A stretch of DNA of 64,000 nucleotides from an uncultured Bacteroidia bacterium (GCA_903834845.1 CAILKW010000142.1:18-64017); one strand, 5' to 3'; positions 13,625-63,746 are shown, counted from the stretch's first letter. Made by a program: numbers and translations. The notes: generated by a model from the letters alone, not told the origin.

Positions 13625-14398
13625 ATGAAAGTTCTGATCTTAGCAGGAGGCCTTGGCTCACGGCTCTCAGAAGAAACAACCCTAAGGCCAAAACCAATGG
13701 TAGAAATTGGTGGAAAACCAATTCTTTGGCACATTATGAAAATATATTCACATTTTGGGTATAACGAATTTATCATTCTGTGTGGTTACAAAGGATATAT
13801 GATCAAAGAATTTTTCTCCCATTATTTTCTTCATACATCCGATATGACAATTGACATGACAACCAATACAATTACCCATCATAATAATCATTGCGAACCA
13901 TGGAAAGTAACCCTTGTGGATACAGGGCTCGACACAATGACTGGTGGGCGTATTAAAAAGGTACGGGATTATATTGGTAACGTACCCTTTATGCTTACTT
14001 ATGGTGATGGTGTTGGAGATGTTGATATTTCTAAGCTGGTTAAATATCATCAATCTCACGGTAAAGCAATAACAATGACCGCTGTACAACCTGAAGGAAG
14101 GTATGGTTCTTTGGTTCTTAACGAAAATGAAGAGGTAACCTCATTTCAGGAAAAACCAAAGGGAGATGGTGCATGGATCAATGCAGGTTATTTTGTTTGC
14201 CAACCTGAAGTATTCGACTATATTCCAGATGGAGATCAAATTATTTTTGAACGAGAACCTTTGGAAGGTTTAGCAAGTGCCTGTCAACTTCAAGCTTATA
14301 AACATGACGGATTATGGAAACCCATGGATACCCAACGCGACAAAAGCCAATTGGAAGATTTGATTGAAAAAGGGAAAGCGCCCTGGATACGCTGGTAG
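13625..14398 (+). CDS. rfbF: Glucose-1-phosphate cytidylyltransferase
   Basis: MKVLILAGGLGSRLSEETTLRPKPMVEIGGKPILWHIMKIYS.. at 257 aa is the typical RfbF/DdhA signature and length. Confidence 0.9.
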   Translation: MKVLILAGGLGSRLSEETTLRPKPMVEIGGKPILWHIMKIYSHFGYNEFIILCGYKGYMIKEFFSHYFLHTSDMTIDMTTNTITHHNNHCEPWKVTLVDTGLDTMTGGRIKKVRDYIGNVPFMLTYGDGVGDVDISKLVKYHQSHGKAITMTAVQPEGRYGSLVLNENEEVTSFQEKPKGDGAWINAGYFVCQPEVFDYIPDGDQIIFEREPLEGLASACQLQAYKHDGLWKPMDTQRDKSQLEDLIEKGKAPWIRW

Positions 14399-14445
14399 CG
14401 ATTACGAATTACACGAATTAAAACGAATTTTACGAACAAATTACA
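14399..14445. repeat. ACGAATT/AATTCGT word array (spacer after rfbF)
   Basis: ATTACGAATTACACGAATTAAAACGAATTTTACGAAC holds three ACGAATT words at 9-11 nt spacing. It is followed by CACAG-type words and an 8-bp hairpin (AAAGCACT..AGTGCTTT, about 14491-14520). Confidence 0.7.
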
Positions 14446-14550
14446 CAGTGTCACACAGAAAAAAAAGCACCGTGTCACACAATGTAGTTAAAAAGCACTC
14501 AGTTAAACTCAGTGCTTTCACTGAGATACCTTGTTCAACGAACACTTAAC

Positions 14551-15627
14551 ATGGAAAATCTTTTTGATAGAATATTTACCAATCGCAAGGTTTTGATCAC
14601 AGGGCATACCGGTTTTAAAGGATCGTGGTTGTGTTTATTATTGAATAAATTGGGTGCTGATGTTTTTGGTTATGCGTTAGACCCTCCTACTAACCCTAGT
14701 TTGTTCGTGGAAGCAAAAATTAACGAAATCATGACTTCCTTTATCGGCGATATTCGTGATTACGAAAATCTATTCAAAGTCATTCAGCAAGTTCAACCTG
14801 AAATTGTTATCCACATGGCTGCGCAACCGTTGGTTAGGGAATCATACAAGAAACCTGTTGAAACCTATGCGATCAATGTGATGGGAACAGTACACTTTCT
14901 TGAAGCATGTCGGCATACAAAAAGTGTAAAGGCCATTGTAAATGTAACAACCGACAAATGTTACGCAAATAAAGAGTGGCATTGGGGTTATCGTGAAAAT
15001 GAGCCAATGGGAGGTTACGATCCTTATTCAAACAGCAAAGGATGTTCGGAGCTTGTAACTTCTTCGTACCGCAATTCGTATTTTAATCCTGCAAAATACT
15101 CCGAACATGGTGTGGCTGTCGCTTCAGCTCGTGCAGGTAATGTTATTGGAGGTGGCGATTGGGCTAATGACAGACTTATCCCAGATTTTATCCGCTCCAT
15201 ATCCCAAGGTGAAAAAGTAAAAATCCGCAGTCCTTTTGCAATTCGTCCATGGCAACATGTATTAGAACCTTTAACAGGCTACCTTACTTTAGCTGCAAAA
15301 CTATTTACCGAAGGCGTAAAATATGCCGAGGGGTGGAACTTCGGACCCGATGATGAAGATGCCAAAAACGTGGAGTGGATCACATTAACAATCTGCGAAC
15401 TTTGGGGTGAGGGTGCCTCTTTCAGCATCGACAAAGACCCTCAGCTCCACGAGGCCAATTACCTGAAACTAGACTGTTCAAAATCTAAAGCCGAACTGGA
15501 TTGGACTCCCAAATGGAACATCCAAACAACTTTACAATCCATCGTAGAGTGGAACAAAGCTTATTTGCGTGGTGAAAACATGCGTACAGTATCGGAATAC
15601 CAAATAAATCAATATTATAACAATTAA
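14551..15627 (+). CDS. rfbG: CDP-glucose 4,6-dehydratase
   Basis: VLITGHTGFKGSWL Rossmann start, YSNSKGCSE (YxxxK) and about 358 aa. Start at ATG 14551 (MENLFDR). Confidence 0.9.
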   Translation: MENLFDRIFTNRKVLITGHTGFKGSWLCLLLNKLGADVFGYALDPPTNPSLFVEAKINEIMTSFIGDIRDYENLFKVIQQVQPEIVIHMAAQPLVRESYKKPVETYAINVMGTVHFLEACRHTKSVKAIVNVTTDKCYANKEWHWGYRENEPMGGYDPYSNSKGCSELVTSSYRNSYFNPAKYSEHGVAVASARAGNVIGGGDWANDRLIPDFIRSISQGEKVKIRSPFAIRPWQHVLEPLTGYLTLAAKLFTEGVKYAEGWNFGPDDEDAKNVEWITLTICELWGEGASFSIDKDPQLHEANYLKLDCSKSKAELDWTPKWNIQTTLQSIVEWNKAYLRGENMRTVSEYQINQYYNN

Positions 15628-15686
15628 AAACGAACCACTTCGTGTAATTCGTAATAATTCGTGTAATTCGTATAATTCGTAACAAT
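15628..15686. repeat. AATTCGT word array
   Basis: Four AATTCGT words start at 15646, 15656, 15665 and 15674, a 9-10 nt phasing. They lie immediately upstream of the antitoxin-like ORF. Confidence 0.8.
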
Positions 15687-15941
15687 ATGTTGGCAATAAA
15701 AGCAAATTATCATAATGGCATAATTACTTTTCTCGAAGCCATGCCAGAGAAAGTAAGGAATGCACGGTTGACCATTGTAGTGGAACCGGAGGAACAGGAC
15801 AATAGTTTTATCCCATCACAAGATTTTAAAAGTACACAAATTGATAGTGAAGTTGAATTTGAAGCCATGGGACTGAGTGCGCTTTTTGATGACGAAAACG
15901 ATAAAAACATTAATTGGGAGGATTATTTTGGACTCAAATAA
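15687..15941 (+). CDS. Small antitoxin-like protein (DUF104-like N-terminus)
   Basis: 84 aa, MLAIKANYHNGIITFLEAMPEKVRNARLTIVVEPE resembles the i.A.Y.NG.i..LE.. antitoxin family, with an acidic tail. Lies upstream of and overlapping a MazF-like module. Confidence 0.5.
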   Translation: MLAIKANYHNGIITFLEAMPEKVRNARLTIVVEPEEQDNSFIPSQDFKSTQIDSEVEFEAMGLSALFDDENDKNINWEDYFGLK

Positions 15942-16284
15942 ATTCAACATCGGCGAAATTGTCTTGATCGATTTCCCCTATTCTAATCTAAAAGGCTCTA
16001 AATATAGGCCTGCTGTTATCATTGGAGTAACTGACATTCAGAACGATTTAATCGTTGCATTTGTTACATCAGAAATTGAAAATTATAGTTGGAGCGAATA
16101 TGCTGTTAAGTTCAGCCAGGCACATTTACAATCTGGTACAATTAAACAAGAAAGTATCATACGCTGCGACAAAATGATCACCATCAGTCCGCAACGTATT
16201 TCACTCAGAAAAGTTGGGACATTAAAGAAAACAAAAACTGCAGAAGTTCTCCGGAAATTGTCTCGAATCAGTGTCAATGGGGTA
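15877..16284 (+). CDS. MazF/PemK-like toxin module with no stop codon, continuing in frame into rfbH
   Basis: NIGEIVLIDFPYSNLKGSKYRPAVIIGV... is the MazF/PemK N-terminal signature. Possible starts are ATG 15877, ATG 15889 and TTG 15928. The frame runs uninterrupted into ATG 16285. Confidence 0.6.
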
Positions 16285-17550
16285 ATGGAAACAATTCATG
16301 CCAAACAAGACTTTATCCCTGGCAAATCACGGGTTAATTATGCCGGACGTGTATTCGATGAGAAAGAAATCAACAACGCTGTCAATGCTTCTCTTGATTT
16401 CTGGCTCACTGAAGGACGTTTCTCTGAAGAATTCTCCGAAAAGATTGCAGAATTTATAGGTGTGGAACATGTATTATTGACCAATTCGGGTTCTTCAGCC
16501 AATTTGCTTGCGTTCTCGGCACTGACTTCCGAAAAACTTGGCGACAAACGATTACGTCCGGGAGATGAAGTGGTATCAGTTGCAGCCGGGTTTCCTGCTA
16601 CCGTTACGCCGATTATCCAAAATGGTTTGGTTCCTGTGTTTGTTGATGTTGAGATACCTACCTACAATATTGATGTAGAGATGATGCGTAAAGCGATCAC
16701 GCTTAAAACCAGATGTATCTTTATTGCACATACCTTGGGGAATCCATTCAATATCGATGCCGTAATGCAATTGGCCAAAGAACACGATTTGTGGGTAATC
16801 GAAGACAATTGCGATGCATTTGGAAGTGAGTACAACGGTAAGAAGACGGGATCTTTTGCTCATCTTTCAACCATATCCTTCTATCCTGCCCATCATATCA
16901 CCACAGGCGAAGGAGGTGCAATTTGTACAAATGATCCTCAATTGGCTCAATTAGTTCGTGCTTTCCGCGACTGGGGACGTGATTGCTATTGTGCAGGCGG
17001 TGAAAACAACACTTGCGGCAAACGTTTCTCGCAGTTGTTTGGAAACCTTCCTTTCGGATTCGATCATAAATATGTTTATTCCGAAATTGGTTATAACCTA
17101 AAGATGACAGATATACAAGCTGCAATTGGTGTAGAACAAATCGAAAAACTACCATATTTCTGCGAACGCCGGAAAGCAAATTTTCAGGAATGGGAACGAA
17201 TTTTCACGAAGTATCATGATTACTTTATTTTGCCGAAAGCAACCGAACGAGCCGATCCGGCATGGTTTGCATTTATTGTAACTCTTAAGGAAACCGCTCC
17301 TTTTAAACGTGATGATTTAACAGGTCACCTAAATGCAAAGCTAATTGAAACCCGTAATCTGTTTGCAGGCAACATCACCAAACAACCAGGCTTCATGGGC
17401 AAAAACTGGCGCATTGCCGATCATTTGAATAATACTGACTACATAATGAATAACACTTTCTTCCTTGGTACATACCCTGGACTAACGAAAGATATGTTTG
17501 ATTATGCTGAAGGCGTACTCGATTCATTTGTTCAAGATTTCACGAATTAG
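16285..17550 (+). CDS. rfbH: CDP-6-deoxy-D-xylo-4-hexulose 3-dehydrase (E1, RfbH/DdhC)
   Basis: From METIHAKQDFIPGKSRVNYAGRVFDEKEINNAVNASLDFWLTEGRF.. for about 421 aa. DegT-type PLP/PMP fold with the RfbH-typical N-terminus. It is part of the composite ORF 15877..17550. Confidence 0.85.
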   Translation: METIHAKQDFIPGKSRVNYAGRVFDEKEINNAVNASLDFWLTEGRFSEEFSEKIAEFIGVEHVLLTNSGSSANLLAFSALTSEKLGDKRLRPGDEVVSVAAGFPATVTPIIQNGLVPVFVDVEIPTYNIDVEMMRKAITLKTRCIFIAHTLGNPFNIDAVMQLAKEHDLWVIEDNCDAFGSEYNGKKTGSFAHLSTISFYPAHHITTGEGGAICTNDPQLAQLVRAFRDWGRDCYCAGGENNTCGKRFSQLFGNLPFGFDHKYVYSEIGYNLKMTDIQAAIGVEQIEKLPYFCERRKANFQEWERIFTKYHDYFILPKATERADPAWFAFIVTLKETAPFKRDDLTGHLNAKLIETRNLFAGNITKQPGFMGKNWRIADHLNNTDYIMNNTFFLGTYPGLTKDMFDYAEGVLDSFVQDFTN

Positions 17551-17570
17551 GACGAATTACACGAATCGAA

Positions 17571-17945
17571 ATGCCAGAGATTATCTACAAAGAAGAAAGC
17601 TACAAGATCATAGGGGCATGTATGGAAGTCCATAAAAAGCTTGGTTGTGGGTTTCTTGAAAGTGTATATTCTGAGGCACTCGAAATAGAATTTAAGAAGT
17701 CCGAAATACCCTACGAGCGTGAAAAAAAATTGCCCGTATTTTATGGAGACGTTCCGCTTAAAAAGTATTTCAAAGCCGACTTCGTTTGTTATAATTCAAT
17801 CATCCTTGAACTGAAGGCAACAAAGTTTATTATTGAAGCTGATCACCGTCAAACGGTTAATAATGTAAAAGCCACCAAATTTCAACTTGGTTTGCTTATC
17901 AATTTCGGTACTCCATCATTGACCTATAAACGAATCGTCAATTAG
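17571..17945 (+). CDS. GxxExxY protein (PD-(D/E)XK-like small nuclease-fold family)
   Basis: 124 aa with GCGFLESVY (G-x-x-E-x-x-Y) and D...ELK (ADFVCYNSIILELKA). Flanked on both sides by ACGAATT/AATTCGT words. Confidence 0.8.
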   Translation: MPEIIYKEESYKIIGACMEVHKKLGCGFLESVYSEALEIEFKKSEIPYEREKKLPVFYGDVPLKKYFKADFVCYNSIILELKATKFIIEADHRQTVNNVKATKFQLGLLINFGTPSLTYKRIVN

Positions 17946-17978
17946 TCTAATTCGTGTTCGTGTTATTCGTTTAAATTC

Positions 17979-18671
17979 ATGAAATCAATGCTACAAAAAA
18001 AATATAAATCAGCTGTTGTATCCGTAATAAATCCATTCTCAGGTATCTATACTTTGGAAATTAAATCCTTGGGAAACAAATTCAAATACTCGCCTGGCCA
18101 ATTTCTTCACATTGCGATTGATTCAGATTACGATGGTACCAGCCAATGGCCCGATTCCCGATGTTTCTCGATGCAAAGCAATCCCGACGAAGAAACCATC
18201 CGGATTACTTATGCGGTAAAGGGATCATTTACCAAACAGATGGAACAAAACTTTAAAGTAGGTTCCGAAGTCTGGTTGAAACTACCTTATGGCGATTTGT
18301 TTTCCCAGCCACACAACAAAATTAATACTGTATTTATTGCTGGCGGCACAGGCATCACCCCGTTCCTCTCCCTTTTTACACACGAATCTTTCAACGAATA
18401 CCTCAACCCAAAAATTTACCTCGGGTTTCGTTCCCAGTCTTACAACATATATCAGGATGAACTCGTCAGTTCGAGAAATTCGTCAAAATTCGTGAAATTG
18501 TATAACGAGGACACCGATGGAATTATTGACATCCAAAGCATCTTCAACGAGAATGGCCCGGAACCCAATTATTTTATCTCCGGACCACCGGCAATGATTA
18601 AAGCCTTCAAAAACACGCTGATCGGTAAAAAAGTTCCAGCAGGAAATATACTTACCGATGATTGGGAGTAA
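17979..18671 (+). CDS. FNR-like FAD/NAD(P)-binding oxidoreductase, candidate E3 reductase for RfbH (lacks a ferredoxin domain)
   Basis: 230 aa. FLHIAIDS..RCFSM (FAD-binding RxxS-like) and VFIAGGTGITPFLS (NAD-binding). Sits directly after rfbH. Confidence 0.7.
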   Translation: MKSMLQKKYKSAVVSVINPFSGIYTLEIKSLGNKFKYSPGQFLHIAIDSDYDGTSQWPDSRCFSMQSNPDEETIRITYAVKGSFTKQMEQNFKVGSEVWLKLPYGDLFSQPHNKINTVFIAGGTGITPFLSLFTHESFNEYLNPKIYLGFRSQSYNIYQDELVSSRNSSKFVKLYNEDTDGIIDIQSIFNENGPEPNYFISGPPAMIKAFKNTLIGKKVPAGNILTDDWE

Positions 18672-18776: not shown

Positions 18777-19097
18777 ATGACGAGCAGTGACAGAGAAATA
18801 TTAAGCCAAAAACTGATTTCATGCAAAAGCTTTTGGTCTTTTAAAATACCACAGGAAATCCCTGATGATATTTTAATTGAAAAAACTCTGATATACCTTG
18901 ATCTGGTGGATATTAATGTATTGTTTAAACTATTTTCATCAAAAAAGATAAAACATATTTGGCGGTCCCGTGTCGTGATTCAGGACGATTATTACCATAC
19001 GCTAAATAAACTGCTTGCATGGATGTATTTTGAAATAAAAAACCCAGACCGTTACATAAAAATAACAATTCGTAACCACATTAACCATCTTTCATGA
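18777..19097 (+). CDS. Small protein upstream of an AbiEii-type NTase, putative cognate antitoxin
   Basis: 106 aa. SFWSFKIPQEIPDDILIEKTLIYLDLVDINVLFKLF resembles the LFWDvd..ld...fIIeRvL.yG family that I recall upstream of such NTases. The stop overlaps the next start (ATGA). Confidence 0.45.
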   Translation: MTSSDREILSQKLISCKSFWSFKIPQEIPDDILIEKTLIYLDLVDINVLFKLFSSKKIKHIWRSRVVIQDDYYHTLNKLLAWMYFEIKNPDRYIKITIRNHINHLS

Positions 19098-19741
19098 CGG
19101 CCTTAGCACCTAACACTGGTAAACTTTTCGATAAAGTCGCCGCTCTGGAATGTATAAAGCCTTATTTCCTGGTGGGAGGTACCGCTCTTTCTCTGCAACT
19201 AGATACCCGTCTTAGCGAAGATTTGGACTTCATGAACTGGAAGACACAGAAAAGGCAAAAACAAGAGGTTGATTGGTTTGCTATTGAAAAAGAATTATCA
19301 ACAATAGGAACTATTGAAGCCCACGATATTTGGGATTTTAATCACGTTGAATTTTTGGTTGCCGGAGTCAAATTCTCATTTTACAATTCCATGAAATCCT
19401 CTCCGATTGCAGCTCCGGTTTACTTAAAAGACAATTTACAACTTGCCGATATTGAAGCAATCGGTGCAATGAAAATGGAAGTAATGTTGCGCAGAAGCAA
19501 TTTTCGCGATTATTACGATATCTATGCTATACTTCAACATGGAATAGATTTTAAAAAGCTGGTTGATTTATCATTAAATTATTCGGGGCACATTTTAACA
19601 ACCAAAAATCTACTTGCTATACTAATCAATAGTTCACGTTTTAATATTGATCAAGGATTTGAACTGTTAAACCCAAAATATAAGGTAGGCCCTGCCGAAA
19701 TTGAGGCTTATCTGAAAATAAAGATTAAAGCATCATTTTGA
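19094..19741 (+). CDS. AbiEii/AbiGii-family nucleotidyltransferase toxin-like protein
   Basis: YFLVGGTALSLQLDTRLSEDLDFM is the AbiEii (DUF1814) N-terminal signature. 215 aa. Confidence 0.7.
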   Translation: MTALAPNTGKLFDKVAALECIKPYFLVGGTALSLQLDTRLSEDLDFMNWKTQKRQKQEVDWFAIEKELSTIGTIEAHDIWDFNHVEFLVAGVKFSFYNSMKSSPIAAPVYLKDNLQLADIEAIGAMKMEVMLRRSNFRDYYDIYAILQHGIDFKKLVDLSLNYSGHILTTKNLLAILINSSRFNIDQGFELLNPKYKVGPAEIEAYLKIKIKASF

Positions 19742-19784: not shown

Positions 19785-19918
19785 AGATTTTTCATAGCAA
19801 GGCATCTGCTATCAACTACTTTATCTACGGCCCTCCGGCAATGATTAAAGCCTTTAAAAACACGCTGATCGGTAAAAAAGTTCCATCAGAAAATATTCTG
19901 ACCGACGATTGGGAGTAA
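19785..19918 (+). pseudogene. Reductase 3' remnant 1 (copy of the end of 17979..18671)
   Basis: ..NYFIYGPPAMIKAFKNTLIGKKVPSENILTDDWE* compares with the intact ..NYFISGPPAMIKAFKNTLIGKKVPAGNILTDDWE*. It has no 5' part. Confidence 0.85.
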
Positions 19919-19976
19919 CTTTCGAGTAATTCGTCTAAATTCGTGAAATCCGCAAAAATGTAATTCGTATTTTCTA

Positions 19977-20990
19977 ATGATTAATTCTGTACACACAAAT
20001 AATTTTGGGCCTTTAACTGATTTACAGTGGAATAAATTGGGGAATATTAACTTGATATTAGGCCCTAACAGTTGTGGAAAAACATTCTTGCTCAAAGCAT
20101 TGTACAGTGCAATCCGCACACTCGAAGATTACCGAAGGGGTGATGATCAGCGGACTGCCTCCGAAATCTTGCAAGAAAAATTATATTGGACTTTCCAATC
20201 CGATAAAATCGGAGATATAGTAACTAAAGGAGCTGAAACGCCCCTTTCATTTAAAATGCAAATTGACAACCACGATTTTCGATATTCATTTGGACGCGAT
20301 ACTGTGAAACAGATCTCTGAATTGGAAAACCATAATCCAAAGCGTGAAAGCAACTCCATATTCCTACCCGCTAAAGAAGTCTTGTCTATTCACCATATCA
20401 TCCTGAAGTCCAGAGAAATTGACAAAGTATTTGGATTTGACGATACCTATCTCGACTTGGCAAGGGCTATAAGGCAGTCACCGAAAAAAGGAAAAAACTT
20501 TGATGAATTTGCAAGGTCTCGGCAGAAATTAGAGGAAATGATTGGTGGCAAAATTGAATTTGATGAATTAACAGGCAAATGGCTTTTCAAAAAAGGCAAT
20601 GCAAAATTTACAATTGGCTCAACTGCTGAAGGGATAAAAAAAATTGCGATTGTTGACACGTTATTAGGAAACCGATATCTTGATGACAAATCGGTTGTAT
20701 TTATTGATGAACCCGAATCTGCCTTGCATCCTGATGCAATTGGCACATTGCTTGATATTGTGGCTCTTCTGGCCGAAAGGGGAATTCAGTTTTTTATGGC
20801 AAGTCACTCCTATTTTGTAGTCAAGAAACTTCTACTCATTGCATTGGAAAAGAACTTGTCCATCCCTGTAATTAGTTTTCAGGAAAATAGGTGGAATATG
20901 GCAGATCTAAGAGAAGGAATGCCATCGAATTCAATTGTCCAGGCCTCAATCGACCTCTACATGAAAGAGGTTGAAATTCAAACTACCTGA
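19977..20990 (+). CDS. ABC/SMC-like P-loop ATPase (AAA_21-like)
   Basis: Walker A LILGPNSCGKTF, Walker B VVFIDEPESALHP and H-loop-like MASHS. 337 aa with no transmembrane or transporter partner. Confidence 0.75.
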   Translation: MINSVHTNNFGPLTDLQWNKLGNINLILGPNSCGKTFLLKALYSAIRTLEDYRRGDDQRTASEILQEKLYWTFQSDKIGDIVTKGAETPLSFKMQIDNHDFRYSFGRDTVKQISELENHNPKRESNSIFLPAKEVLSIHHIILKSREIDKVFGFDDTYLDLARAIRQSPKKGKNFDEFARSRQKLEEMIGGKIEFDELTGKWLFKKGNAKFTIGSTAEGIKKIAIVDTLLGNRYLDDKSVVFIDEPESALHPDAIGTLLDIVALLAERGIQFFMASHSYFVVKKLLLIALEKNLSIPVISFQENRWNMADLREGMPSNSIVQASIDLYMKEVEIQTT

Positions 20991-20992
20991 TC

Positions 20993-21502
20993 ATGGTAAC
21001 AGTAGTAGAATCGGGAATGACTTTTGGTCCTTTCCATGAAGATCAATTTTTTTATATAGAAAAATGTATTGTTTACCGGGCAATTCAAGACCAGGTAAAA
21101 ATGGTCGAATTTGTTTTACATAAACCGAATGGAGTTGATGGACAAATATGGTTGATTGAGGCGAAACAAAGCTCACCTCAACCTAAAAATCAAGCAGATT
21201 GGGAGTTTTATTTGGGTGAACTAAAAGAAAAATTTGAAAATGGATTAAGCCTCTTTCTTGCTTTGTGTTTGAATAGGTATTCCGATCCGGATTTTCACGA
21301 AGCAATAAGAACTGTTGATATGGGGAACATACAATTCAAAATTACTTTAGTTATAAAAGGTCATAAAATCGAATGGTTACCTCCTCTTAAAGATGCACTT
21401 CAACAGAGACTTTTACCCCTTTGCAAATCCTTAAATCTTACACCCAACCCCGTGTTGGTAGTTAACGATGAAATGGCACGCGCGAAAGGATTAATCACTT
21501 AA
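20993..21502 (+). CDS. Uncharacterised 169-aa partner of the ATPase, possible PD-(D/E)XK-like fold
   Basis: Starts 2 nt after the ATPase stop. MVEFVLHKPNGVDGQIWLIEAKQS gives a D/E ... E-x-K arrangement. I recognise no family. Confidence 0.5.
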   Translation: MVTVVESGMTFGPFHEDQFFYIEKCIVYRAIQDQVKMVEFVLHKPNGVDGQIWLIEAKQSSPQPKNQADWEFYLGELKEKFENGLSLFLALCLNRYSDPDFHEAIRTVDMGNIQFKITLVIKGHKIEWLPPLKDALQQRLLPLCKSLNLTPNPVLVVNDEMARAKGLIT

Positions 21503-21947: not shown

Positions 21948-22038
21948 ATTCGTGAAATTCCTGCCTACGGTAGGCAGACGTTTTGATTCGTGTAATCCGT
22001 ATTTACTAAATATGCGTATCTTAGCAAAAAAAAATGAT

Positions 22039-54764: not shown

Positions 54765-54794
54765 TTGTCCTTATCCATCTTAAATATTCAAATT

Positions 54795-55675: not shown

Positions 55676-55915
55676 ATGGACAATAATGTTTTCAAATCTA
55701 TACTTCCATTTAAGATACAGGATTTAATATCGATTATTAAGGATCGGAAGCATTTGAATTTTACGGAAGCGCTTCATTATCTTTATGAATCTAAACTTTA
55801 CAATGCTTTTTCAATAGAGGATACTAAACTTTGGCACCTAAGTTCAGAAAAACTTTTTGATATGCTTGAGAACGAGAAACTAACAAAAGAAATCATTTTC
55901 CCTGACTACGTATAA
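55676..55915 (+). CDS. Small helical protein, first of a DUF3791-like pair
   Basis: 79 aa, immediately upstream (3-nt gaps) of a DUF3791-like and a DUF3990 gene. Weak resemblance only. Confidence 0.4.
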   Translation: MDNNVFKSILPFKIQDLISIIKDRKHLNFTEALHYLYESKLYNAFSIEDTKLWHLSSEKLFDMLENEKLTKEIIFPDYV

Positions 55916-55918
55916 AAG

Positions 55919-56128
55919 ATGATCAAACTCAATAAAATAGAGCAGTTTCAGCTATTTTGTCTCGAATATTATAAGAATCAGATTAGTATTTCGGGCAAAA
56001 TGGCTTTGGATGTTTTTGAATCAAAAGGTGTCTTTAATTTTCTTGAAATGGGCTATGAAATATTGCATACACAAAGTATTAAGTATGTTGTTGACGAAAT
56101 TATCCTTTTCATTAAAAACAGATCGTAA
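55919..56128 (+). CDS. DUF3791-like protein
   Basis: QLFCLEYYKNQISISGKMALDVFESKGVFNFLEMGYEILHTQSIKYVVDEI matches my recollection of DUF3791 (..y.iLHt.s..y.v.di). Confidence 0.55.
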   Translation: MIKLNKIEQFQLFCLEYYKNQISISGKMALDVFESKGVFNFLEMGYEILHTQSIKYVVDEIILFIKNRS

Positions 56129-56131
56129 TTA

Positions 56132-56620
56132 ATGAACCTATACCATGGTGGCTTAAATGTGGTTGAATTTCCGGTTATACAGGATTCTCAAAGATTGTTG
56201 GACTTCGGTAAAGGGTTCTATACCACAAGAAATCGGGATCAGTCTGAAAAATGGGCTATAATCAAGCAAAACAGGGAAGACAATAAGCCTAAACCTATCG
56301 TTACCGTGTATAAAATAGACGAGGATATACTTAAAAACGAGACTTTTAATGTGAAGATGTTTGCAAAAGCAGATGAACAATGGTTGGATTTTATCTTTTC
56401 TAACAGAATGGGATTAAATGTTCACACTTTTGATATTGTCATTGGTGCTGTTGCCAATGATACACTATATTCAACACTTGTTTTATATGAATCCGGAGTG
56501 CTTTCAAAAATTGAAACCATCAGAAGACTTAAAACCCATAAACTCTTTGACCAAATCTCGTTTCATAATCAAACAGTTCTAAAAAAACTTCAATTCATTG
56601 AAAGCTATGTGGTTAAATAA
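56132..56620 (+). CDS. DUF3990 protein
   Basis: MNLYHGGLN..DFGKGFYTTRNRDQSEKWA... at 162 aa. Canonical DUF3990 N-terminus and the usual DUF3791 neighbourhood. Confidence 0.65.
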   Translation: MNLYHGGLNVVEFPVIQDSQRLLDFGKGFYTTRNRDQSEKWAIIKQNREDNKPKPIVTVYKIDEDILKNETFNVKMFAKADEQWLDFIFSNRMGLNVHTFDIVIGAVANDTLYSTLVLYESGVLSKIETIRRLKTHKLFDQISFHNQTVLKKLQFIESYVVK

Positions 56621-56996: not shown

Positions 56997-58145
56997 ATGA
57001 ACCACAGTAATTTAATTGAAATTATTCATCAAGGTGAAAATTCCGCCATCGAATTTAAGTCAGCTGATGTTAAAACTGATAGTTTGGCAAAAGAGATAAT
57101 TGCTTTTGCCAATATGAATGGTGGAATCATCCTGATAGGAATTGAAGATGATAGGACGATCAGCGGAGTTTCAAAAGAAAAAAACTGGGAAGAGTGGACC
57201 ATGAATATTGCCCGCAACAATATAAAACCTCCATTAAATATTGGTTTCGAGTATATTGAATTGAAGGAGAAAATAATCGCAAGTATTACGGTTGAGAAAG
57301 GGAAAAATAAGCCATATCAAACCATTGATAGCAAGTACTATATCAGAATCGGCTCTACAAATCGGATAGCCTCCATTGCCGAATTAATGCGCCTGTTTCA
57401 GGAAAGTGGAGTTTTTCATTATGATTTGTGCAAGGTAGAAAACACGTCAATTAAATCGCTAAATTATTATAAGATAGCTGAATATTTTAAACATTTTGAA
57501 ATTGATTTTGAAAAGGAAATCGATGAAAATAGGGTCAATTTACTTACAAATACCGATATACTGACTGTGAACGGAGAAGTTACACTGGCTGGTTTGTTGG
57601 TTTTTGGAATCAATCCAGCCCGGTATCTTTTTCAATCGGGAATCACTTTTGTTCATTACAATGGAAATGATGTTACTGGCGATATAATTGATAGCAGGCA
57701 CATTGAAGGCGATATGGATTATGTCATTTCTACTGCATTTACATCAATAAAAAACAATATTTTAACACCTTCTGTAATTATCGGATTAAAAAGAGTTGAT
57801 ACCAAAGAAATATATCCTGATAAAGTATTCAGAGAGTTGATAACAAATTGTTGTGCTCATCGAAATTATGCAATTACCGGTTCAAAAATAAGGATTTTAT
57901 TATTTCACAATAGAATTGAATTTATCAGTCCCGGCAGGTTGCCAAATACAATAACTATCGAGAAATTATCCGCAGGCGTTTCATTTAGACGAAATCAGCT
58001 TTTGACAAAATTTATGGTTGTTCTTCGGCTAATGGACACTTTTGGAAGAGGATTGCCCAATGTAATTTCCGAAGCCAAAAGATTGAAAAAAAGTATCCTA
58101 TTTGAGGAAATTGGCGAAGAATTTAAAGTTACTTTAGATTTGTGA
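56997..58145 (+). CDS. AlbA_2 (Schlafen-type) + ATPase-like domain protein
   Basis: 382 aa. The first 147 aa differ from 50243..51385 at 11 positions (hand count), the centre is diverged, and the last 13 aa differ at one position. Confidence 0.7.
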   Translation: MNHSNLIEIIHQGENSAIEFKSADVKTDSLAKEIIAFANMNGGIILIGIEDDRTISGVSKEKNWEEWTMNIARNNIKPPLNIGFEYIELKEKIIASITVEKGKNKPYQTIDSKYYIRIGSTNRIASIAELMRLFQESGVFHYDLCKVENTSIKSLNYYKIAEYFKHFEIDFEKEIDENRVNLLTNTDILTVNGEVTLAGLLVFGINPARYLFQSGITFVHYNGNDVTGDIIDSRHIEGDMDYVISTAFTSIKNNILTPSVIIGLKRVDTKEIYPDKVFRELITNCCAHRNYAITGSKIRILLFHNRIEFISPGRLPNTITIEKLSAGVSFRRNQLLTKFMVVLRLMDTFGRGLPNVISEAKRLKKSILFEEIGEEFKVTLDL

Positions 58146-58147
58146 TT

Positions 58148-58338
58148 TATATCAATGAGGAGGCGATGAATGTATTGGTGGAGGTTCTGTTGCTAAAATC
58201 CTGATGATAAAACAGCAATAACCGAATATGTTATCCGTTTTTCGAGTGTTGTCAGCCATCAAGATATTTGCGGTGTACAATTCAATCCTGAGAAAAGTCA
58301 TTAGTGGGGCATGCCGTTGCGAAGGAGATCTGCCTTGA
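58148..58338 (+). pseudogene. Composite remnant: internal wbuX piece fused to a hisH 3' end copy
   Basis: 58148-58200 aligns to 53494-53550 (..IKEEAMNMLVERFGWQK). 58200-58338 aligns to 55265-55405 (..[32 protein letters not shown]), with stops. Confidence 0.7.
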
Positions 58339-58648: not shown

Positions 58649-59434
58649 ATGCTACGACCCAGAATTATCCCCTGTTTACTTGTCCATGACAAAGGCCTGG
58701 TTAAAACCATTCGGTTTAGTGATCCCAAATATGTTGGTGATCCTATCAATGCTGTAAGGATTTTCAATGAAAAAGAGGTAGATGAGTTAATAGTGTTAGA
58801 TATTGATGCCACCCGTGAAAAAAGAGAACCTGACTATAGGATGATTGCTCATCTGGCAGAGGAATGTCGGATGCCTCTTTGCTACGGTGGCGGTGTAACA
58901 ACCAGTGATCAGGTGAGAAAAATAATTGGCCTTGGAGTTGAAAAAGTGGCAATCAGTGCAGCTGCAATCAATCATCCACATCTTATTGCTGAGGCAGCCG
59001 GTAAGGTAGGAAATCAAAGTATTGTTGCTGTACTTGATGTTAAAAAACTACTTTTCTCGGGGAAATATGAAGTAAAAATAAACAATGGAACCAAATCAAC
59101 AGGTAAGAGTCCTTTTGAATTTGCCAAAGAATTGGAACAACTTGGTGCTGGCGAAATCGTAATTAATTCCATTGATAACGATGGTATTATGAAGGGTTAC
59201 GATCATCAGTTGGTCGAAAAAATTTGTAAAGCTATTCATATTCCATTAACGGTTCTTGGCGGAGCTGGTTCACTTCAAGACATAGGTCAGCTATTTCAAA
59301 GACATGGTACTTTGGGTGCTGCTGCGGGAAGCCTATTTGTTTTCAAAGGAATTTATCGAGCTGTTTTGATTAATTATCCCAACCGTGATGAAAAAGATAC
59401 TCTTATCAGACAAAACATTCAATATCTGTCCTAG
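58649..59434 (+). CDS. hisF: HisF paralogue of glycan loci (WbuZ / AglZ-HisF2-like cyclase subunit)
   Basis: RIIPCLLVHDKGLVKTIRF..YVGDPINAVRIFNEKEVDELIVLDI. 261 aa. Confidence 0.85.
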   Translation: MLRPRIIPCLLVHDKGLVKTIRFSDPKYVGDPINAVRIFNEKEVDELIVLDIDATREKREPDYRMIAHLAEECRMPLCYGGGVTTSDQVRKIIGLGVEKVAISAAAINHPHLIAEAAGKVGNQSIVAVLDVKKLLFSGKYEVKINNGTKSTGKSPFEFAKELEQLGAGEIVINSIDNDGIMKGYDHQLVEKICKAIHIPLTVLGGAGSLQDIGQLFQRHGTLGAAAGSLFVFKGIYRAVLINYPNRDEKDTLIRQNIQYLS

Positions 59435-59585: not shown

Positions 59586-59725
59586 ATGTTTAAAAACAAA
59601 ATACTTCTAATTACGGGCGGCACATACTCTTATGGAAATGCCCTAATCAACCGCTTTTTAGACACCGATTAAAAAAAAATCGTATTTTTTCGCGAGACGA
59701 GAAAAGCAGGCCGATATGAATGTTG
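59586..59725 (+). pseudogene. fnlA 5' remnant 1
   Basis: ATGTTTAAAAACAAAATACTTCTAATTACGGGCGGCACATACTCTTATGGAAATGCC.. aligns to 62182-62320 (MFKNKILLITGGTYSYGNALINRFLDTD*). It has a stop and an indel. Confidence 0.8.
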
Positions 59726-59747: not shown

Positions 59748-60810
59748 GTGGATATTAAAACAATTATAACCCAATCAGAAGGCCGTCGCCTTGAGTTTAA
59801 GGAGACAATGCCTAAACGTTCGGATTTGGCAAAGACAGTTATTGCCTTTGCCAACGATGCCGGTGGAGATATAATCATTGGGATAGGGGACAAACCTCGT
59901 GCTGTTATCGGTCTTCCGGAAGTAGAACTTGTGTCTATGGAGGAACAAATCAGCGACATTATATACAGTCGTTGTTATCCTGGAATATTGCCTGAAATAA
60001 CATTTCTGAGTGTTGCCGACAAACACCTGATTAAGGTTACTGTTTATAGAGGAAGTATGCCGCCATATTACATTAAAGAGAAAGGTAAGTTACAAGGAAC
60101 ATATATTCGTGTTGGTTCTTCAAACAGATTAGCCGACGAGTCAATAATTACAGAATTAGAGCGTAGAAAACGAAATGTATCGTTTGATAGCGAACTTGTT
60201 TCGGATAAACTGGCAGAAGCATTAAAAACAGATCCCTTTGCTTCCATTTTCAATGAAAAAACCGGTAAAGAACTCAGTAAACAAACGTTGAAAAAATTGG
60301 AATTGACGAAAGAGAATCACGGAGTAATTTACCCAACCAATGCGTTGGTTTTGTTTTCAGATGATGAATTACGCAACTCACTATTTCACTATGCAAAAGT
60401 GGAATGTGCACGTTTTAAAGGAATATCCGAATATTGAATTCCGTTGGAAGGAAGTGGGTTTGTCATTTCAGGTACAGTTCGTAAAGTTGAATTATATTGT
60501 CGAGCAACAACATCAGCAAGAGTTAGGGCAAGAGTTAGGGCAAGAGTTGAGCCAAGAGCAAAAAGAGAAAACTCTTTTCAGTTTAATATTCAAACATTTA
60601 CAAGTTCGACCTCAGTCGCGTAATGAACTAAAAGAGGCATTTGGCCTTAAAAAAGTATCTGGTTACCTAAATAGAACCATAATAAAATTGCAATTATATA
60701 ATTTAATAGAACAAACAATCCCGAAAAATCTCAATCACCCCAGCCAAATGTTGCGTATTACAGAGCGTGGAGTAAATCTCATACAATTAGTTGAACAAAG
60801 ACATAAATAA
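59748..60810 (+). pseudogene. AlbA_2-family gene with its central region lost and a frame break
   Basis: N-terminal part (ORF 59748..60437) has EGRRLEFKE ... AFANDAGGDIIIGIGDK. The C-terminal wHTH-like part is in another frame (60340..60810). Total length is far below the 380-463 aa of the paralogues. Confidence 0.6.
60517..60558 (+). repeat. 12-nt tandem repeat (CAAGAGTTAGGG x about 3.5) inside the pseudogene
   Basis: CAAGAGTTAGGGCAAGAGTTAGGGCAAGAGTTGAGCCAAGAG encodes QELGQELGQELSQE. Confidence 0.85.
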
Positions 60811-60825: not shown

Positions 60826-60975
60826 CATTTTTTAAAACAAAACCTCTTAATTACCGTGGCACAGGCTCTTATGGTACTGCCGTACTCAATCTCTTTTTTG
60901 ATACCGATATCAAAGAAATCCGCTTCTTTTCAAGTGATGAAAAGAAGCAGGACGATATGCGATATGGTTTTTGAA
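60826..60975 (+). pseudogene. fnlA 5' remnant 2
   Basis: ..AAAACAAAACCTCTTAATTACCGTGGCACAGGCTCTTATGGTACTGCCGTACTCAATC..GATACCGATATCAAAGAAATCCGC..GATGAAAAGAAGCAGGACGATATGCG aligns to 62190-62330. Confidence 0.8.
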
Positions 60976-61026: not shown

Positions 61027-61059
61027 TTCTGATTATTTCAGAACAATTACATATCTTTG
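61027..61059 (+). promoter_or_regulatory. Possible HigBA promoter/operator: inverted repeat TTCTGA-N5-TCAGAA plus TAnnTTTG
   Basis: TTCTGATTATTTCAGAA (61027-61043) is followed by TATCTTTG (61052-61059), 10 nt before ATG 61069. Short motifs, so weak evidence. Confidence 0.3.
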
Positions 61060-61068
61060 TACACGCTT

Positions 61069-61407
61069 ATGAGATTAATTGGTAAGCAAAAATTAGAAAA
61101 ACTTAAAAGAAAAAACAAAGGAAACGTTTCTTTGACAAAAGATATTAACAAGCTGATTGTTGATATTGAAATGAATGAGTGGAAAAGTAAGGCTGATTTA
61201 AAAGAAACAAGATCAGATGCCAATTGTGTGCATAGCGATGGCTTCTACTTCTTTAATCTGGAAGTAAGCCGAACTATGATACTTGTAGTATTTGAAGAAG
61301 GAGAAGCCTCGGTAGTATGGGTTGGTAATCATCAGGAATATGAAATTACCTTCAAAAATAATAAAGACACCATCAAAAAATGGTTAAAGGATAACAATTG
61401 GATATAA
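61069..61407 (+). CDS. higB: HigB-family (RelE-fold) toxin
   Basis: MRLIGKQKLEKLKRKN...YFFNLEVSRTMILVVFEEGEASVVWVGNHQEYE fits the HigB_toxin pattern (..f.i.gn.yRli..i......v.i..igtH.eYd). Confidence 0.7.
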   Translation: MRLIGKQKLEKLKRKNKGNVSLTKDINKLIVDIEMNEWKSKADLKETRSDANCVHSDGFYFFNLEVSRTMILVVFEEGEASVVWVGNHQEYEITFKNNKDTIKKWLKDNNWI

Positions 61408-61413
61408 TAGCTT

Positions 61414-61974
61414 ATGCAAACAGATTTCGACATAAATAAGGTTATTAAGTCAGGCAAAATTCAAAATGAATTGGATTTTGAAAAAGCCTTGATTGCCGAC
61501 AGAAAGTTAAGGGTACTTTCAAAAGAAAATCCCGAATATAGGTCAGTAAGGAGTAAATTACGCGATTTAATTGAGGCATGGGAAAGCAAGCATTGGATGG
61601 CAGATTCGGAAATATCGGATGAAAAAATCCGAGAAAGTGATCTGGCGGGTTCTATCGCGGAAAACGAACGTCAATTTATTGAAAAAAGAAAGAATCTGAT
61701 CAGAAATCAATTAAAAAGCCTGAACCTTACGCAGCAAGCCTTGGGTGGCCTATTAGGGCATAAGAATAAATCATATATTTCAGAATTAATGAATGGAGTT
61801 GCACCTTTTTCATTGCGGGATTTAATCGTTATTAACCTTCTAATGAAAATTGATTTGTCCGATTTGATACCGGCATTCTTATCTCATAACGAACGGTTAA
61901 GGATAAAAGCATCTCTGGAGAAACTGGAAAATACCAAATTAAAACTACGCAAGGCCGATTTTACAATAGTTTGA
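61414..61974 (+). CDS. higA: HTH (XRE-type) antitoxin, HigA-like
   Basis: C-terminal LKSLNLTQQALGGLLGHKNKSYISELMNGVAPFSLRDL is an XRE helix-turn-helix. Located 6 nt after higB. Confidence 0.65.
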   Translation: MQTDFDINKVIKSGKIQNELDFEKALIADRKLRVLSKENPEYRSVRSKLRDLIEAWESKHWMADSEISDEKIRESDLAGSIAENERQFIEKRKNLIRNQLKSLNLTQQALGGLLGHKNKSYISELMNGVAPFSLRDLIVINLLMKIDLSDLIPAFLSHNERLRIKASLEKLENTKLKLRKADFTIV

Positions 61975-62181: not shown

Positions 62182-63198
62182 ATGTTTAAAAACAAAACCC
62201 TCTTAATTACCGGAGGCACAGGCTCATTTGGGAATGCCGTACTAAACCGCTTTTTAGATACCGATATCAAAGAAATTCGCATCTTTTCACGTGATGAAAA
62301 AAAACAGGATGATATGCGCCATCAGTACCAAAACCCCAAGATCAAATTTTACATTGGCGATGTACGCGACAAACGTAGTGTGGACGGAGCAATGTTTGGC
62401 GTAGATTATATATTTCATGCCGCTGCATTAAAACAAGTACCGTCCTGCGAGTTTTTCCCTACACAAGCAGTAAAAACAAATGTGTTTGGAACTGAAAATG
62501 TTTTGGACTCAGCCATCGAACATGGCGTAAAAAATATAGTGATTTTAAGTACCGACAAGGCTTGTTATCCAATCAATGCAATGGGAATCAGCAAAGCCAT
62601 GATGGAAAAAGTAGCTATTGCAAAAGGACGGGCATTAGGTAAAGATTCGAAAACAACGATCTGTTGTACCCGGTATGGGAATGTAATGGCTTCGAGAGGA
62701 TCGGTTATTCCATTATTTGTCGATCAACTTAAAGCTGGAAAAGATTTGACCATCACCGACCCCAACATGACCCGGTTTATGATGACTCTGGAAGATGCCG
62801 TTGATTTGGTTCTCTATGCCTTTTCAAATGGCCAAAACGGCGATCTTTTTGTACAAAAAGCACCTGCAGCAACTATTCTTACCTTGGCTGAATCAATTAT
62901 TAACTTATACCAATCGAATCAACAAGTAAGAGTGATAGGGACTCGTCATGGGGAAAAGCTTTATGAAACACTGGTAACCCGTGAAGAAATGGCCAAAGCA
63001 GAAGATATGGGGAATTATTACCGGGTACCTTGTGATTCGCGCGACTTAAACTACGATAAATATTTTGTGGAAGGTGAAGAAGAAATCTCCAAAATCGAAG
63101 ATTATCATTCACACAACACACGCCGTCTGGACAAGGACGGGATGAAAGAGCTTTTACTCAAACTCCCGATGATCAGAAAAGACATTTTGAACGAATAA
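62182..63198 (+). CDS. fnlA: UDP-N-acetylglucosamine 4,6-dehydratase/5-epimerase (FnlA/CapE type)
   Basis: MFKNKTLLITGGTGSFGNAVLNRFLDTDIKEIRIFSRDEKKQDDMR..KFYIGDVRD is almost the CapE/FnlA N-terminus as I remember it. 338 aa. Confidence 0.85.
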   Translation: MFKNKTLLITGGTGSFGNAVLNRFLDTDIKEIRIFSRDEKKQDDMRHQYQNPKIKFYIGDVRDKRSVDGAMFGVDYIFHAAALKQVPSCEFFPTQAVKTNVFGTENVLDSAIEHGVKNIVILSTDKACYPINAMGISKAMMEKVAIAKGRALGKDSKTTICCTRYGNVMASRGSVIPLFVDQLKAGKDLTITDPNMTRFMMTLEDAVDLVLYAFSNGQNGDLFVQKAPAATILTLAESIINLYQSNQQVRVIGTRHGEKLYETLVTREEMAKAEDMGNYYRVPCDSRDLNYDKYFVEGEEEISKIEDYHSHNTRRLDKDGMKELLLKLPMIRKDILNE

Positions 63199-63204
63199 AT
63201 TTTT

Positions 63205-63286
63205 GAACGCAGATGACGCTGATTGAAAGGATTAACACAGATTTTTTTATCCGTATAAGTCATTAGCATTTGTGTCATCTGCGTTC
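63205..63286. repeat. Palindromic word-repeat element (CACAGAT family, inverted orientation)
   Basis: Perfect 13-nt inverted repeat GAACGCAGATGAC (63205-63217) / GTCATCTGCGTTC (63274-63286). It encloses ..TTAACACAGATTTTTTTATCCG.. Confidence 0.7.
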
Positions 63287-63299
63287 TAATCTTAAAATT

Positions 63300-63746
63300 A
63301 TGTCCGAACAACCAACTATTATTAAAGGTGGTAACTTCACCGATCACCGTGGTTCGATGCGTTTTGTCAATGATTTTCGTTTTGAAGACATAAAACGTTT
63401 CTATTTTATCAAACATCCTGAGACTTCTGTTATTCGTGCATGGCAAGGACATCAGTTTGAGAAAAAGTATTTCTACCCTATTTCGGGTCGTTTTGTGGTT
63501 GCCTGGGTGAAAATTTATGACTTTGAAAATCCATCAAAAGACTTGATCCCTGAATACCATTTCCTTTCAGCCGAGAACAGTGAAATCATTTCAGTTCCAA
63601 AAGGATATGCCAACGGATTAAAAGCTTTGGAGACAAACTCCGAACTTATGATCTTCTCTGACATGAATCTGGAAGAATCGGTCAATGAAAAAATACGCTA
63701 TCCTGCTTATTGGTGGCTTAACTGGGAAACGATAGAACACAGATAA
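63300..63746 (+). CDS. WxcM/FdtA-like cupin (sugar ketoisomerase-like)
   Basis: MSEQPTIIKGGNFTDHRGSMRFVNDF..FKRFYFIKH..IRAWQGHQFEKKYFYPISG is the cupin pattern of WxcM-like domains. Start at ATG 63300. Confidence 0.6.
   Translation: MSEQPTIIKGGNFTDHRGSMRFVNDFRFEDIKRFYFIKHPETSVIRAWQGHQFEKKYFYPISGRFVVAWVKIYDFENPSKDLIPEYHFLSAENSEIISVPKGYANGLKALETNSELMIFSDMNLEESVNEKIRYPAYWWLNWETIEHR

Follow-up and report, generated by a model that had tools for sequence, protein, structure and literature searches.

How does a long operon for surface sugars come to hold about a dozen small toxin-antitoxin (TA) and defence genes, when no gene that could have moved them is found nearby? The question is raised by a 64,000-nucleotide stretch of DNA from an uncultured Bacteroidia bacterium (GCA_903834845.1, CAILKW010000142.1:18-64017), which is called the window here at its full length. 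The window is a glycan (O-antigen/capsule-type) super-operon. An initial annotation, made from the sequence alone, proposed that cassettes had entered it as circular molecules, each by a single crossover in a piece of a pathway gene. We compared the window with itself, with protein and RNA families, and with related loci. With moderate confidence, the sequence comparisons point to homology-driven exchange of cassettes through gene-end repeats, which would work without a dedicated recombinase.

Cassettes inside two sugar-nucleotide modules

The results showed that 11 small co-oriented TA/defence cassettes split two normally contiguous modules, rfbF-G-H-reductase-epimerase and GT4-WbuX-HisH-HisF-FnlA (Table 1). 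The empty state was read from relatives (L-numbers such as L007 and L131, and hLMQPPBb, are labels of the compared relative or metagenome loci and contigs). The gene for the FAD/NAD reductase (RED) is followed by the epimerase gene within 30-70 bp in L015, L016, L018, L019, L020, L028 and L038. In a set of 80 metagenome loci retrieved through HisF, WbuX and HisH were contiguous in 50 of 51 loci, HisH and HisF in 58 of 66, and HisF and FnlA in 27 of 31; the same three gaps measure ~0.9, 3.2 and 2.7 kb in the window. These data support the view that foreign cassettes were inserted into pathway modules which are otherwise unbroken. In other genomes the junctions hold different genes: YefM/YoeB, AbiE and an ATPase lie between RED and epimerase in L012, and YoeB with MNT/HEPN pairs in L037; in L048, fnlA is preceded by an AlbA_2 gene and, before that, by a fnlA 5' remnant; and at least five unrelated loci have four-helix-bundle genes at the HisH-HisF junction.

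Family matches bore out most labels of the initial annotation, namely PemK/MazF, GxxExxY, AbiEii, VapB/PIN, the three AlbA_2 genes, and HigB with its helix-turn-helix (HTH) antitoxin. The ATPase and 169-amino-acid (aa) pair proved to be adjacent HEC-02A and HEC-02B genes, with end-to-end PADLOC matches (HEC-02A, E 3.5e-159 over 1-335 of 337 aa; HEC-02B, E 1.9e-57 over 1-168 of 169 aa) and a predicted defence role. The P-loop ATPase pseudogene was also recovered, as open reading frames (ORFs) in pieces with weak AAA_22/AAA_16 matches. The 84-aa ORF called DUF104-like matched no family. Of two modules called DUF3990-like, that at 55676-56620 stood (DUF3791/DUF3990, PDC-M13), and for that at 53971-54764 the identity was rejected; it matched no family and did not resemble the true DUF3990 gene. 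All cassettes lie on the operon strand, as had been noted, and every recognisable gene of the window is on the plus strand. The Bacteroidetes -7 motif was found within 35 nucleotides (nt) upstream of only four cassette starts, one being that of AbiEii (TAACTTTG at -29), and the cassettes are mostly promoterless. Scans for sigma-70 promoters and terminators gave the same counts as shuffled sequences, the promoter model not being applicable to Bacteroidetes.

No integrase, transposase or recombinase domain was found in the scanned ORFs of the window or in six-frame translations of its ORF-free stretches, where a Pfam scan for decayed recombinases returned only a remnant of a DAO-type oxidoreductase. 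A site-specific recombinase with matching att sites just outside the window had been named as evidence that would count against single-crossover capture; the called genes visible ~3-10 kb beyond either end include none. The tRNA scan and the Rfam search of the window gave no matches, and the longest inverted match in its self-comparison was 34 bp. These scans upheld the reported lack of integrases, transposases, tRNA genes and long terminal inverted repeats, but inverted repeats of ~30 bp around the GxxExxY genes had been missed.

A chimeric metagenome assembly could in principle have produced both the repeats and the cassette order, and contigs of other assemblies often end at repeats. Against this, independent assemblies of several stratified-lake metagenome samples contain the same DNA in the same arrangement (99.7-100% identity), and the repeats (71-89% identical to their source genes) are too diverged to collapse in an assembly graph. 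We regard such an artefact as so improbable as to be negligible.

Gene-end arms and their variants

Direct repeats flank eight of the 11 cassettes. They are 5' or 3' fragments (arms) of the adjacent pathway gene, 105-700 bp long, and self-comparison matched them to their sources at E 1e-8 to 1e-141, in agreement with the decayed partial gene copies first noticed beside most cassettes. Arms and sources are 71-89% identical at the nt level. The MazF, GxxExxY and 53971-54764 cassettes have no arms. The pattern extends upstream of the stretch first described, where ORF6N 3' ends and DAO-type 5' ends surround AlbA_2, HicBA, MNT/HEPN and an AAA/PDDEXK_9 gene; there the two ORF6N arms around AlbA_2 form the exception in divergence, being 97-98% identical to each other.

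A local duplicate left to decay is expected to show a pairwise dN/dS of ~0.5, together with accumulating stops and frameshifts. The arms gave 0.04-0.25 against the intact genes, at dS from 0.4 to saturated (Table 1). Since these ratios are far below 0.5, most of the divergence arose while both copies were functional in different lineages. Judged in this way, the arms are foreign alleles that would have come by recombination with foreign DNA, or a foreign allele later took the place of the working copy. Tandem duplication in situ was rejected as their source on dN/dS. Similarity ranking of RED 3' halves named no donor of the RED arms (all alleles at 65-80%, synonymous sites saturated), and 5' and 3' halves of intact alleles showed no clear shift that would mark a recombination break at RED codon 110.

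The same ratios bear on insertion in situ with long target duplication, in which a staggered or resected break would lead to the gene end being copied on both sides and one copy would then decay. The resulting structure is identical to the restriction-modification (R-M) cases of Furuta et al. (2010), and the 97-98% identical ORF6N arms, as well as the arms of two target genes carried by one cassette (HEC-02), agree with it. But omega is 0.04-0.25 at dS 0.4 to >1, where neutral drift of one copy would give ~0.5; several arms keep open frames; and the RED arm travels with HEC-02 to L132, where the visible 6 kb upstream hold no intact RED. We consider this explanation very unlikely.

The HEC-02 cassette showed that cassette and arm move as one unit. 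Its whole span, including a 3' cluster of ATTCGT words, is 82-83% identical in L132, L133 and L134. In L132 the similarity (82%) runs through the cluster into a RED remnant, with the junction again at RED codon ~110. In L133-L138, which represent another organism and glycan locus, HEC-02 and its cluster follow a UDP-glucose-dehydrogenase-like gene, and after the cluster comes a 3' remnant of that gene (343 bp, 81.9% nt identity, dN/dS 0.17 in L134). The arms thus come from two different sugar genes, and the order is both times intact gene, cassette, cluster, remnant. For HEC-02A there are relatives with 91-98% aa identity, whereas the 3593 homologues of RED include none between 83 and 100%; therefore the cassette is younger in this genome than its surroundings.

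Conspecific variants were read from identical-protein look-ups only, the gap among RED homologues offering no closer strains. One polymorphic site has HepT on one side and ORF6N on the other. An AlbA_2 of 463 aa is present there in the window, L125 and L126, two contigs carry a 483-aa variant, and in L123 and L128 AlbA_2 is replaced by another full-length ORF6N gene (98% identity between the two ORF6N genes). Window positions 3739-5763 are absent from L131. Its first diagnostic site shows the arm-A variant and the two that follow show the arm-B variant, so that the crossover falls within 63 bp over which the ORF6N arms are identical. The 1947 bp missing from hLMQPPBb correspond exactly to the other register of these arms. 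At a second site, 6754 bp between AlbA_2 cassettes 1 and 2 are missing from L007, and the two AlbA_2 genes are identical over the 47 bp in which the switch falls; the sample of L007 yielded no 825-aa GT4'-WbuX gene. In both L131 and L007 the recombinant joint lies inside the repeat, in agreement with the Campbell-type pattern of a cassette between direct repeats at an occupied site and one repeat copy at an empty site. Presence/absence polymorphism of single cassettes with breakpoints inside the repeats, a prediction of the initial annotation, was in this way seen in L131, L123, hLMQPPBb and L007. The L123 allele carries sequence differences of its own and therefore cannot be an artefact of an assembler skipping across repeats.

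Exchange by homology would proceed as follows. Small selfish TA/defence cassettes would land in sugar-nucleotide modules that are widely shared. A cassette would travel with a sugar-gene fragment, a 3' end after it or a 5' end before it, often together with an ATTCGT cluster. General (RecA-type) recombination between the fragment and the resident gene would put the cassette beside the intact copy, the direct repeats being two diverged alleles. The same repeats could later mediate cassette loss, growth of a tandem array, or replacement by another cassette. Arrays would grow outwards from the intact gene, which fits the observed gradient, the arms and cassettes nearest to the intact gene being the least decayed. 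Co-orientation and the lack of terminators would be what selection tolerates within a long operon. Three points are inferred, namely that RecA is needed, in which direction the events ran, and what form the incoming DNA had. The products would fit a circle with a single crossover and, equally well, an out-of-register (unequal) double crossover between arrays, with linear DNA from a donor that already carries gene, cassette and remnant; within a species plain allelic replacement through the flanks would give the same products. Linking a cassette to a new arm in the first place requires an illegitimate join, which exchange by homology does not account for.

A gene-end remnant was also found in L039 (10769-12624), where a radical-SAM pathway gene lies between HisF and FnlA and is followed by a HisF 3' remnant; therefore such remnants accompany ordinary pathway-gene gain too, and not only TA cassettes.

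Word clusters and GxxExxY genes

Every junction in the 14.4-23.1 kb part of the window has an ATTCGT-word cluster; its end is always ...ATTCGTATTT(T)A, closely followed by a start codon or an arm. The junction of such a cluster, ...ATTCGTATTT(T)A, with RED codon ~110 was found five times in four genomes (window rem2 and rem3, L012 remA, L034 and L132). Arm ends in general tend to fall at conserved Rossmann-type segments or domain borders. The shared RED junction and the co-ending fnlA arms contradict an independent capture of arms, cassette by cassette. Recurrent junctions are not predicted by random arm capture, which suggests a founder junction followed by cassette swapping, or a site-preferring step. 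The breakpoints that recur at cluster edges leave room for a possible site-preferring, site-specific or nuclease-assisted step, and the ATTCGT cluster could be a recognition site.

Several observations weigh against exchange by homology alone. An arm identity of only 71-89% makes a poor RecA substrate. To the left of the cluster/RED junction stands a different cassette each time, and fnlA arms end within ~6 nt of one another beside three unrelated cassettes in two genomes. HEC-02 has taken its conserved ATTCGT cluster along to an unrelated locus. Cassettes without arms exist, both in the window (3 of 11) and in L037. In addition, the contigs that read as deletions may reflect an assembler skipping across direct repeats, with one or two contigs per variant and one of them lacking a DNA record.

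Some of these points would be explained by an integron-like site-specific system in which the 3' word cluster is the recombination site, the enzyme is encoded elsewhere and the arms are by-products. Such a system agrees with the cluster that accompanies HEC-02 into an unrelated locus, with clusters at every 14.4-23.1 kb junction and recurring arm breakpoints, and with co-oriented, mostly promoterless cassettes. It also agrees with L037, where armless cassettes are bordered by hairpin-plus-word elements of 30-47 bp that are 90-100% identical to each other. However, the 64 kb and the visible flanks hold no recombinase, and no motif is shared by every junction; between 47 and 62 kb other words are used, or none. 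The clusters fill the rfb-module spacers even at empty junctions (L038). They are direct word repeats rather than attC-like palindromes, TA/defence cassette flanks showing no pairing beyond that of shuffled sequences, and the observed crossovers fall in the longest identical blocks of the long repeats. We therefore judge an integron-like system possible but unlikely.

The GxxExxY genes are bordered differently. Around them lie imperfect inverted word repeats of ~30 bp with a flank complementarity of z -4.5 to -9. The first gene (z -4.5 to -5.2) has three CACGAAT words at 17542-17566 and three inverted ATTCGTG words at ~17950-17975. Inverted triplets were found at window 17542-17975 and 63740-64000, L007 9540-10070, L037 9550-10005 and L016 9440-10005. 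Three GxxExxY lineages use three words, CACGAAT, CACAGAT and CACNAAGT, and the matching word recurs in nearby spacers. Genes of 37% and 82% identity hold the same rfbH-RED junction in different genomes. The flanks of some four-helix-bundle genes pair as those of GxxExxY do.

These features raise the idea of nuclease hot spots, in which GxxExxY, with its PD-(D/E)XK fold, would cut the cognate spacer words, and repair from foreign templates would bring in cassettes and duplicate gene ends. The inverted repeats, the pairing of lineages with words and the shared rfbH-RED junction are in its favour. On the other hand, nuclease activity and DNA binding of GxxExxY are putative, co-inheritance may explain the word match among the three lineages sampled, clusters are present in a locus without a visible GxxExxY gene (L134), and arms also occur where word clusters are absent (GT4 region). 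The idea seems unlikely to us.

We put forward with similar reserve, as a speculation more probably wrong than right by a wide measure, that word clusters and GxxExxY genes form a two-tier cassette system of Bacteroidales glycan loci, undescribed so far. In its first tier, GxxExxY and four-helix-bundle genes would be autonomous elements bracketed by inverted, lineage-specific triplets of 7-9-nt words, and their words would seed the operon spacers. In the second, the 3' word cluster of TA/defence cassettes would act as an attC-type site; cassettes would enter at the cluster edge beside conserved Rossmann-type segments, through the GxxExxY nuclease or an unseen enzyme, and gene-end arms would then give homology for spread between taxa. 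A search of a literature library found no description of TA cassettes in Bacteroidetes O-antigen loci or of GxxExxY or four-helix-bundle gene mobility.

Further repeats were seen in the spacers. Empty rfbH-RED sites keep both word clusters around a ~100-bp hairpin (GTCATTGCGAG...CTCGCAATGAC). A MITE-like (miniature inverted-repeat transposable element) hairpin of ~90 bp (AATAGCCATGAAAGCC...TTAATGGCTATTC), common to L132 7680-7767 and L012 ~11700-11790, interrupts or borders RED remnants. Spacers at 47480-47515, 55410-55470, 58540-58645, 59435-59530 and 63200-63260 are made up of 9-15-nt words in degenerate runs (such as TTAGTGGTTA, ACACTGATAAC and CTTCTAAACTCCTCA), and small GC-rich hairpins (TCCCGA...TCGGGA) lie at 55520-55590, 56935-56965 and ~62090. 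Four-helix-bundle genes of the 23S rRNA intervening-sequence (IVS) type occupy the HisH-HisF junction of unrelated metagenome lineages at L048 808-1173, L084 344-706 and L092 1803-2177, with decayed copies in L085 and L096; another, at L007 11417-11764, lies just beyond the window, between fnlB and fnlC, and is flanked by long purine-rich word arrays.

The host is an uncultured freshwater member of the Bacteroidales, probably Prolixibacteraceae-like. The nearest genomes are Bacteroidales metagenome-assembled genomes (Prolixibacteraceae, Mariniphaga, Sunxiuqinia), with a maximum reductase protein identity of 78-83%, and the G+C content of the window is 35%. The backbone is made up of rfbF-rfbG-rfbH-RED-epimerase-thiamine-pyrophosphate enzyme, of glycosyltransferases, a flippase and methyltransferases, of a pseudaminic-acid-type module with acyl-modification genes, and of GT4-WbuX-HisH-HisF-FnlA. 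Orthologues of rfbF and rfbG are 78-87% identical (aa) in relatives, with the order kept. The cassettes are concentrated in the widely shared sugar-nucleotide modules, and the central 23 kb (23141-46731), with serotype-specific transferases, flippase, pseudaminic-acid and acyl-modification genes, contain none.

Two fusions were noted. That of PemK/MazF with RfbH (DdhC, aminotransferase-type; 15877-17550) is in frame with no stop codon between, an unusual joining of a toxin domain to a pathway enzyme, and is kept in at least eight relatives (L013, L014, L016, L019, L030, L033, L037 and L038). GT4'-WbuX is a single 825-aa ORF joined by a proline-rich linker, the two being separate genes with a gap of ~80 bp in relatives; GT4' is 64% identical (aa) to GT4. 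In L038, a 78% identical copy of the AbiEii cassette occupies another spacer, the homology covering promoter and ORFs only. In the upstream island, 5' remnants of a DAO-type FAD oxidoreductase (643-766 and 3067-3190, 84% identical) bracket HicB/MNT/HEPN cassettes, and the window holds no intact copy of this gene. A decayed NeuB/PseI fragment (6886-7307, ~69% nt identity to 44999-45226) adjoins HicBA, and a LIC12162-family gene at 10099-11799 is broken into four ORFs.

Table 1. Positions of cassettes, gene-end arms and backbone genes in the window
Feature	Position	Strand	Match or remark
ORF6N 3' arm A (3579-3738), AlbA_2 cassette (4045-5436), arm B (5481-5808)	3579..5808	+	population-polymorphic site
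Intact ORF6N, HicBA, AAA-ATPase_like/PDDEXK_9 gene, two ORF6N 3' arms (8015-8306, 9944-10060)	5950..10060	+	
rfbF (glucose-1-P cytidylyltransferase) and rfbG (CDP-glucose 4,6-dehydratase)	13625..15627	+	Pfam NTP_transferase / GDP_Man_Dehyd
84-aa ORF (presumed antitoxin) and PemK/MazF fused in frame to RfbH; armless	15687..17550	+	PemK_toxin E 2.6e-15
GxxExxY (PDDEXK_3) gene	17571-17945 (17542..17975 with flanking words)	+	TIGR04256 E 2.3e-40
RED, intact FAD/NAD reductase, AscD-like	17979..18671	+	PF00175; source of 3' arms
AbiEi-like/AbiEii cassette with own -7 motif	18777..19741	+	AbiEii
RED 3' arm rem1 (aa ~195-230)	about 19813..19918	+	87% nt over 130 bp; dN/dS 0.08, dS 0.50
HEC-02A/B defence candidate with 3' ATTCGT cluster (21502-21548)	19958..21548	+	PADLOC
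RED 3' arm rem2 (aa 112-230)	about 21549..21947	+	cluster junction common to L012, L034, L132; dN/dS not computable (synonymous sites saturated), pS 0.80, pN 0.20
VapB (DUF2281)/VapC (PIN) cassette	22012..22628	+	NF050009 E 4e-22; PIN
ATTCGT cluster and RED 3' arm rem3 (aa 112-230, frameshifted)	22657..23099; arm from 22696	+	81% nt to 21510-21723; first part dN/dS 0.04, dS 1.08
Epimerase	23141..24064	+	directly 3' of RED in empty-site relatives
GT4 5' arm (aa 1-234, open frame)	46755..47465	+	89% nt to 48985-49671; dN/dS 0.14, dS 0.41; 229 codons without stop or indel
AAA ATPase pseudogene cassette, split ORFs	47551..48767	+	weak AAA_22/AAA_16 matches
GT4 glycosyltransferase, intact	48955..50202	+	Glyco_transf_4/Glycos_transf_1
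AlbA_2/Schlafen-like cassette 1	50243..51385	+	left partner of 6754-bp deletion variant
GT4' paralogue fused to WbuX (N-acetyl sugar amidotransferase)	51426..53903	+	TIGR03573 E 5e-96
65-aa and 206-aa pair between WbuX and HisH; armless	53971..54764	+	no family match
HisH-type glutamine amidotransferase	54765..55409	+	GATase
79-aa/DUF3791/DUF3990 cassette	55676..56620	+	PDC-M13-like
AlbA_2 cassette 2	56997..58145	+	74% nt to cassette 1; first 469 bp 91%
HisH 3' arm (aa 158-213)	58170..58337	+	two stops; dN/dS 0.20, dS 1.22
HisF-type cyclase	58649..59434	+	His_biosynth
fnlA 5' arm remA	59586..59705	+	dN/dS 0.18, dS 0.93
AlbA_2 cassette 3, pseudogene, split	59748..60810	+	
fnlA 5' arm remB	60828..60971	+	86% nt; dN/dS 0.22, dS 0.91
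HigB/HTH-antitoxin cassette	61057..61974	+	HigB_toxin; HTH_3
FnlA/CapE-type dehydratase, intact	62182..63198	+	<=300 bp 3' of HisF in 27/31 relatives
Second GxxExxY gene, runs off window end	63777..64000	+	inverted CACAGAT-type word clusters at flanks

Relation to known systems and biological meaning

Nobusato et al. reportedly described insertion of R-M systems with long target duplication in 2000. Furuta, Abe and Kobayashi (2010; PMC2853133) reported R-M systems inserted without mobility genes and flanked by long direct target repeats of 46-423 bp, which align with a single-copy target in the empty genome, and proposed for such units a cycle of invasion, amplification via the repeats and release. 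The idea, which the initial annotation was not aware of as a described one, thus has a precedent. The cassettes of the window resemble R-M insertions as small selfish units with no mobility gene and with direct repeats at their flanks. The inserts are shorter than 20 kb, the repeats longer than 30 bp, and one repeat copy is found in empty genomes, namely L038, L015, L016 and others for the RED-epimerase junction and L131 for the AlbA_2 site. In the R-M cases, however, the repeats are nearly identical and were read as duplications made at insertion, whereas the arms here, apart from those of ORF6N, are diverged alleles. The cargo consists of TA, abortive-infection and defence candidates instead of R-M systems, as many as three units stand one behind another at a single gene end within an operon, and a word-repeat cluster accompanies the cassette. 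Allelic arms, TA/defence cargo, stacking inside an operon and the word cluster are new relative to the R-M precedent.

Other known systems show partial likeness. Orphan cdiA-CT/cdiI and rhs-CT/rhsI arrays consist of displaced gene-end fragments and small companion genes downstream of an intact gene. Homologous recombination in their conserved part builds these contact-dependent inhibition (CDI) and Rhs arrays and reshuffles them. The window likewise has gene-end fragments beside small genes; but the CDI/Rhs fragment is a variable toxin tip with its immunity companion, and here the end of a housekeeping sugar gene would serve as homology only, with unrelated cargo. Integron arrays and clusters of attC sites lacking integrases (CALINs) likewise consist of many short, co-oriented, mostly promoterless and TA-rich cassettes, each followed by a repeated element. 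Unlike them, the window has no IntI next to the array, in the 64 kb or the visible flanks, and no attC palindrome; it has direct runs of 7-9-nt words, cassettes interleaved with operon genes, and long gene-end repeats.

In capsule and O-antigen switching and in defence hot spots, recombination in conserved flanking genes also moves heterologous DNA without mobility genes, but the unit in the window is a single 0.4-1.5-kb cassette inside the locus, with the flanking gene partly duplicated. The GxxExxY and four-helix-bundle cassettes recall REP/RAYT elements and 23S rRNA IVS in having a small gene between inverted short repeats that are also scattered intergenically. GxxExxY differs from RAYT in its PD-(D/E)XK fold (PDDEXK_3/TIGR04256) in place of the Y1 (HUH) fold and in its word-triplet repeats, and its mobility is putative. 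For orphan CDI/Rhs arrays, integrons, capsule switching and REP/RAYT alike, the likeness fails in at least one defining feature.

The surface glycan is a main receptor for phages, and in many genomes no other part recombines as much; this locus packs anti-phage and addiction modules exactly there, so that receptor variation and defence turnover would be tied together in one locus. Exchange through gene-end repeats would offer defence genes a route to spread among distant taxa without integrases, by means of a borrowed piece of a sugar gene. A gene-end remnant beside a small gene pair provides a search rule for such cassettes, and the lake population described here is a natural one suited to examining the long-proposed cycle of invasion, amplification and release of selfish gene pairs.

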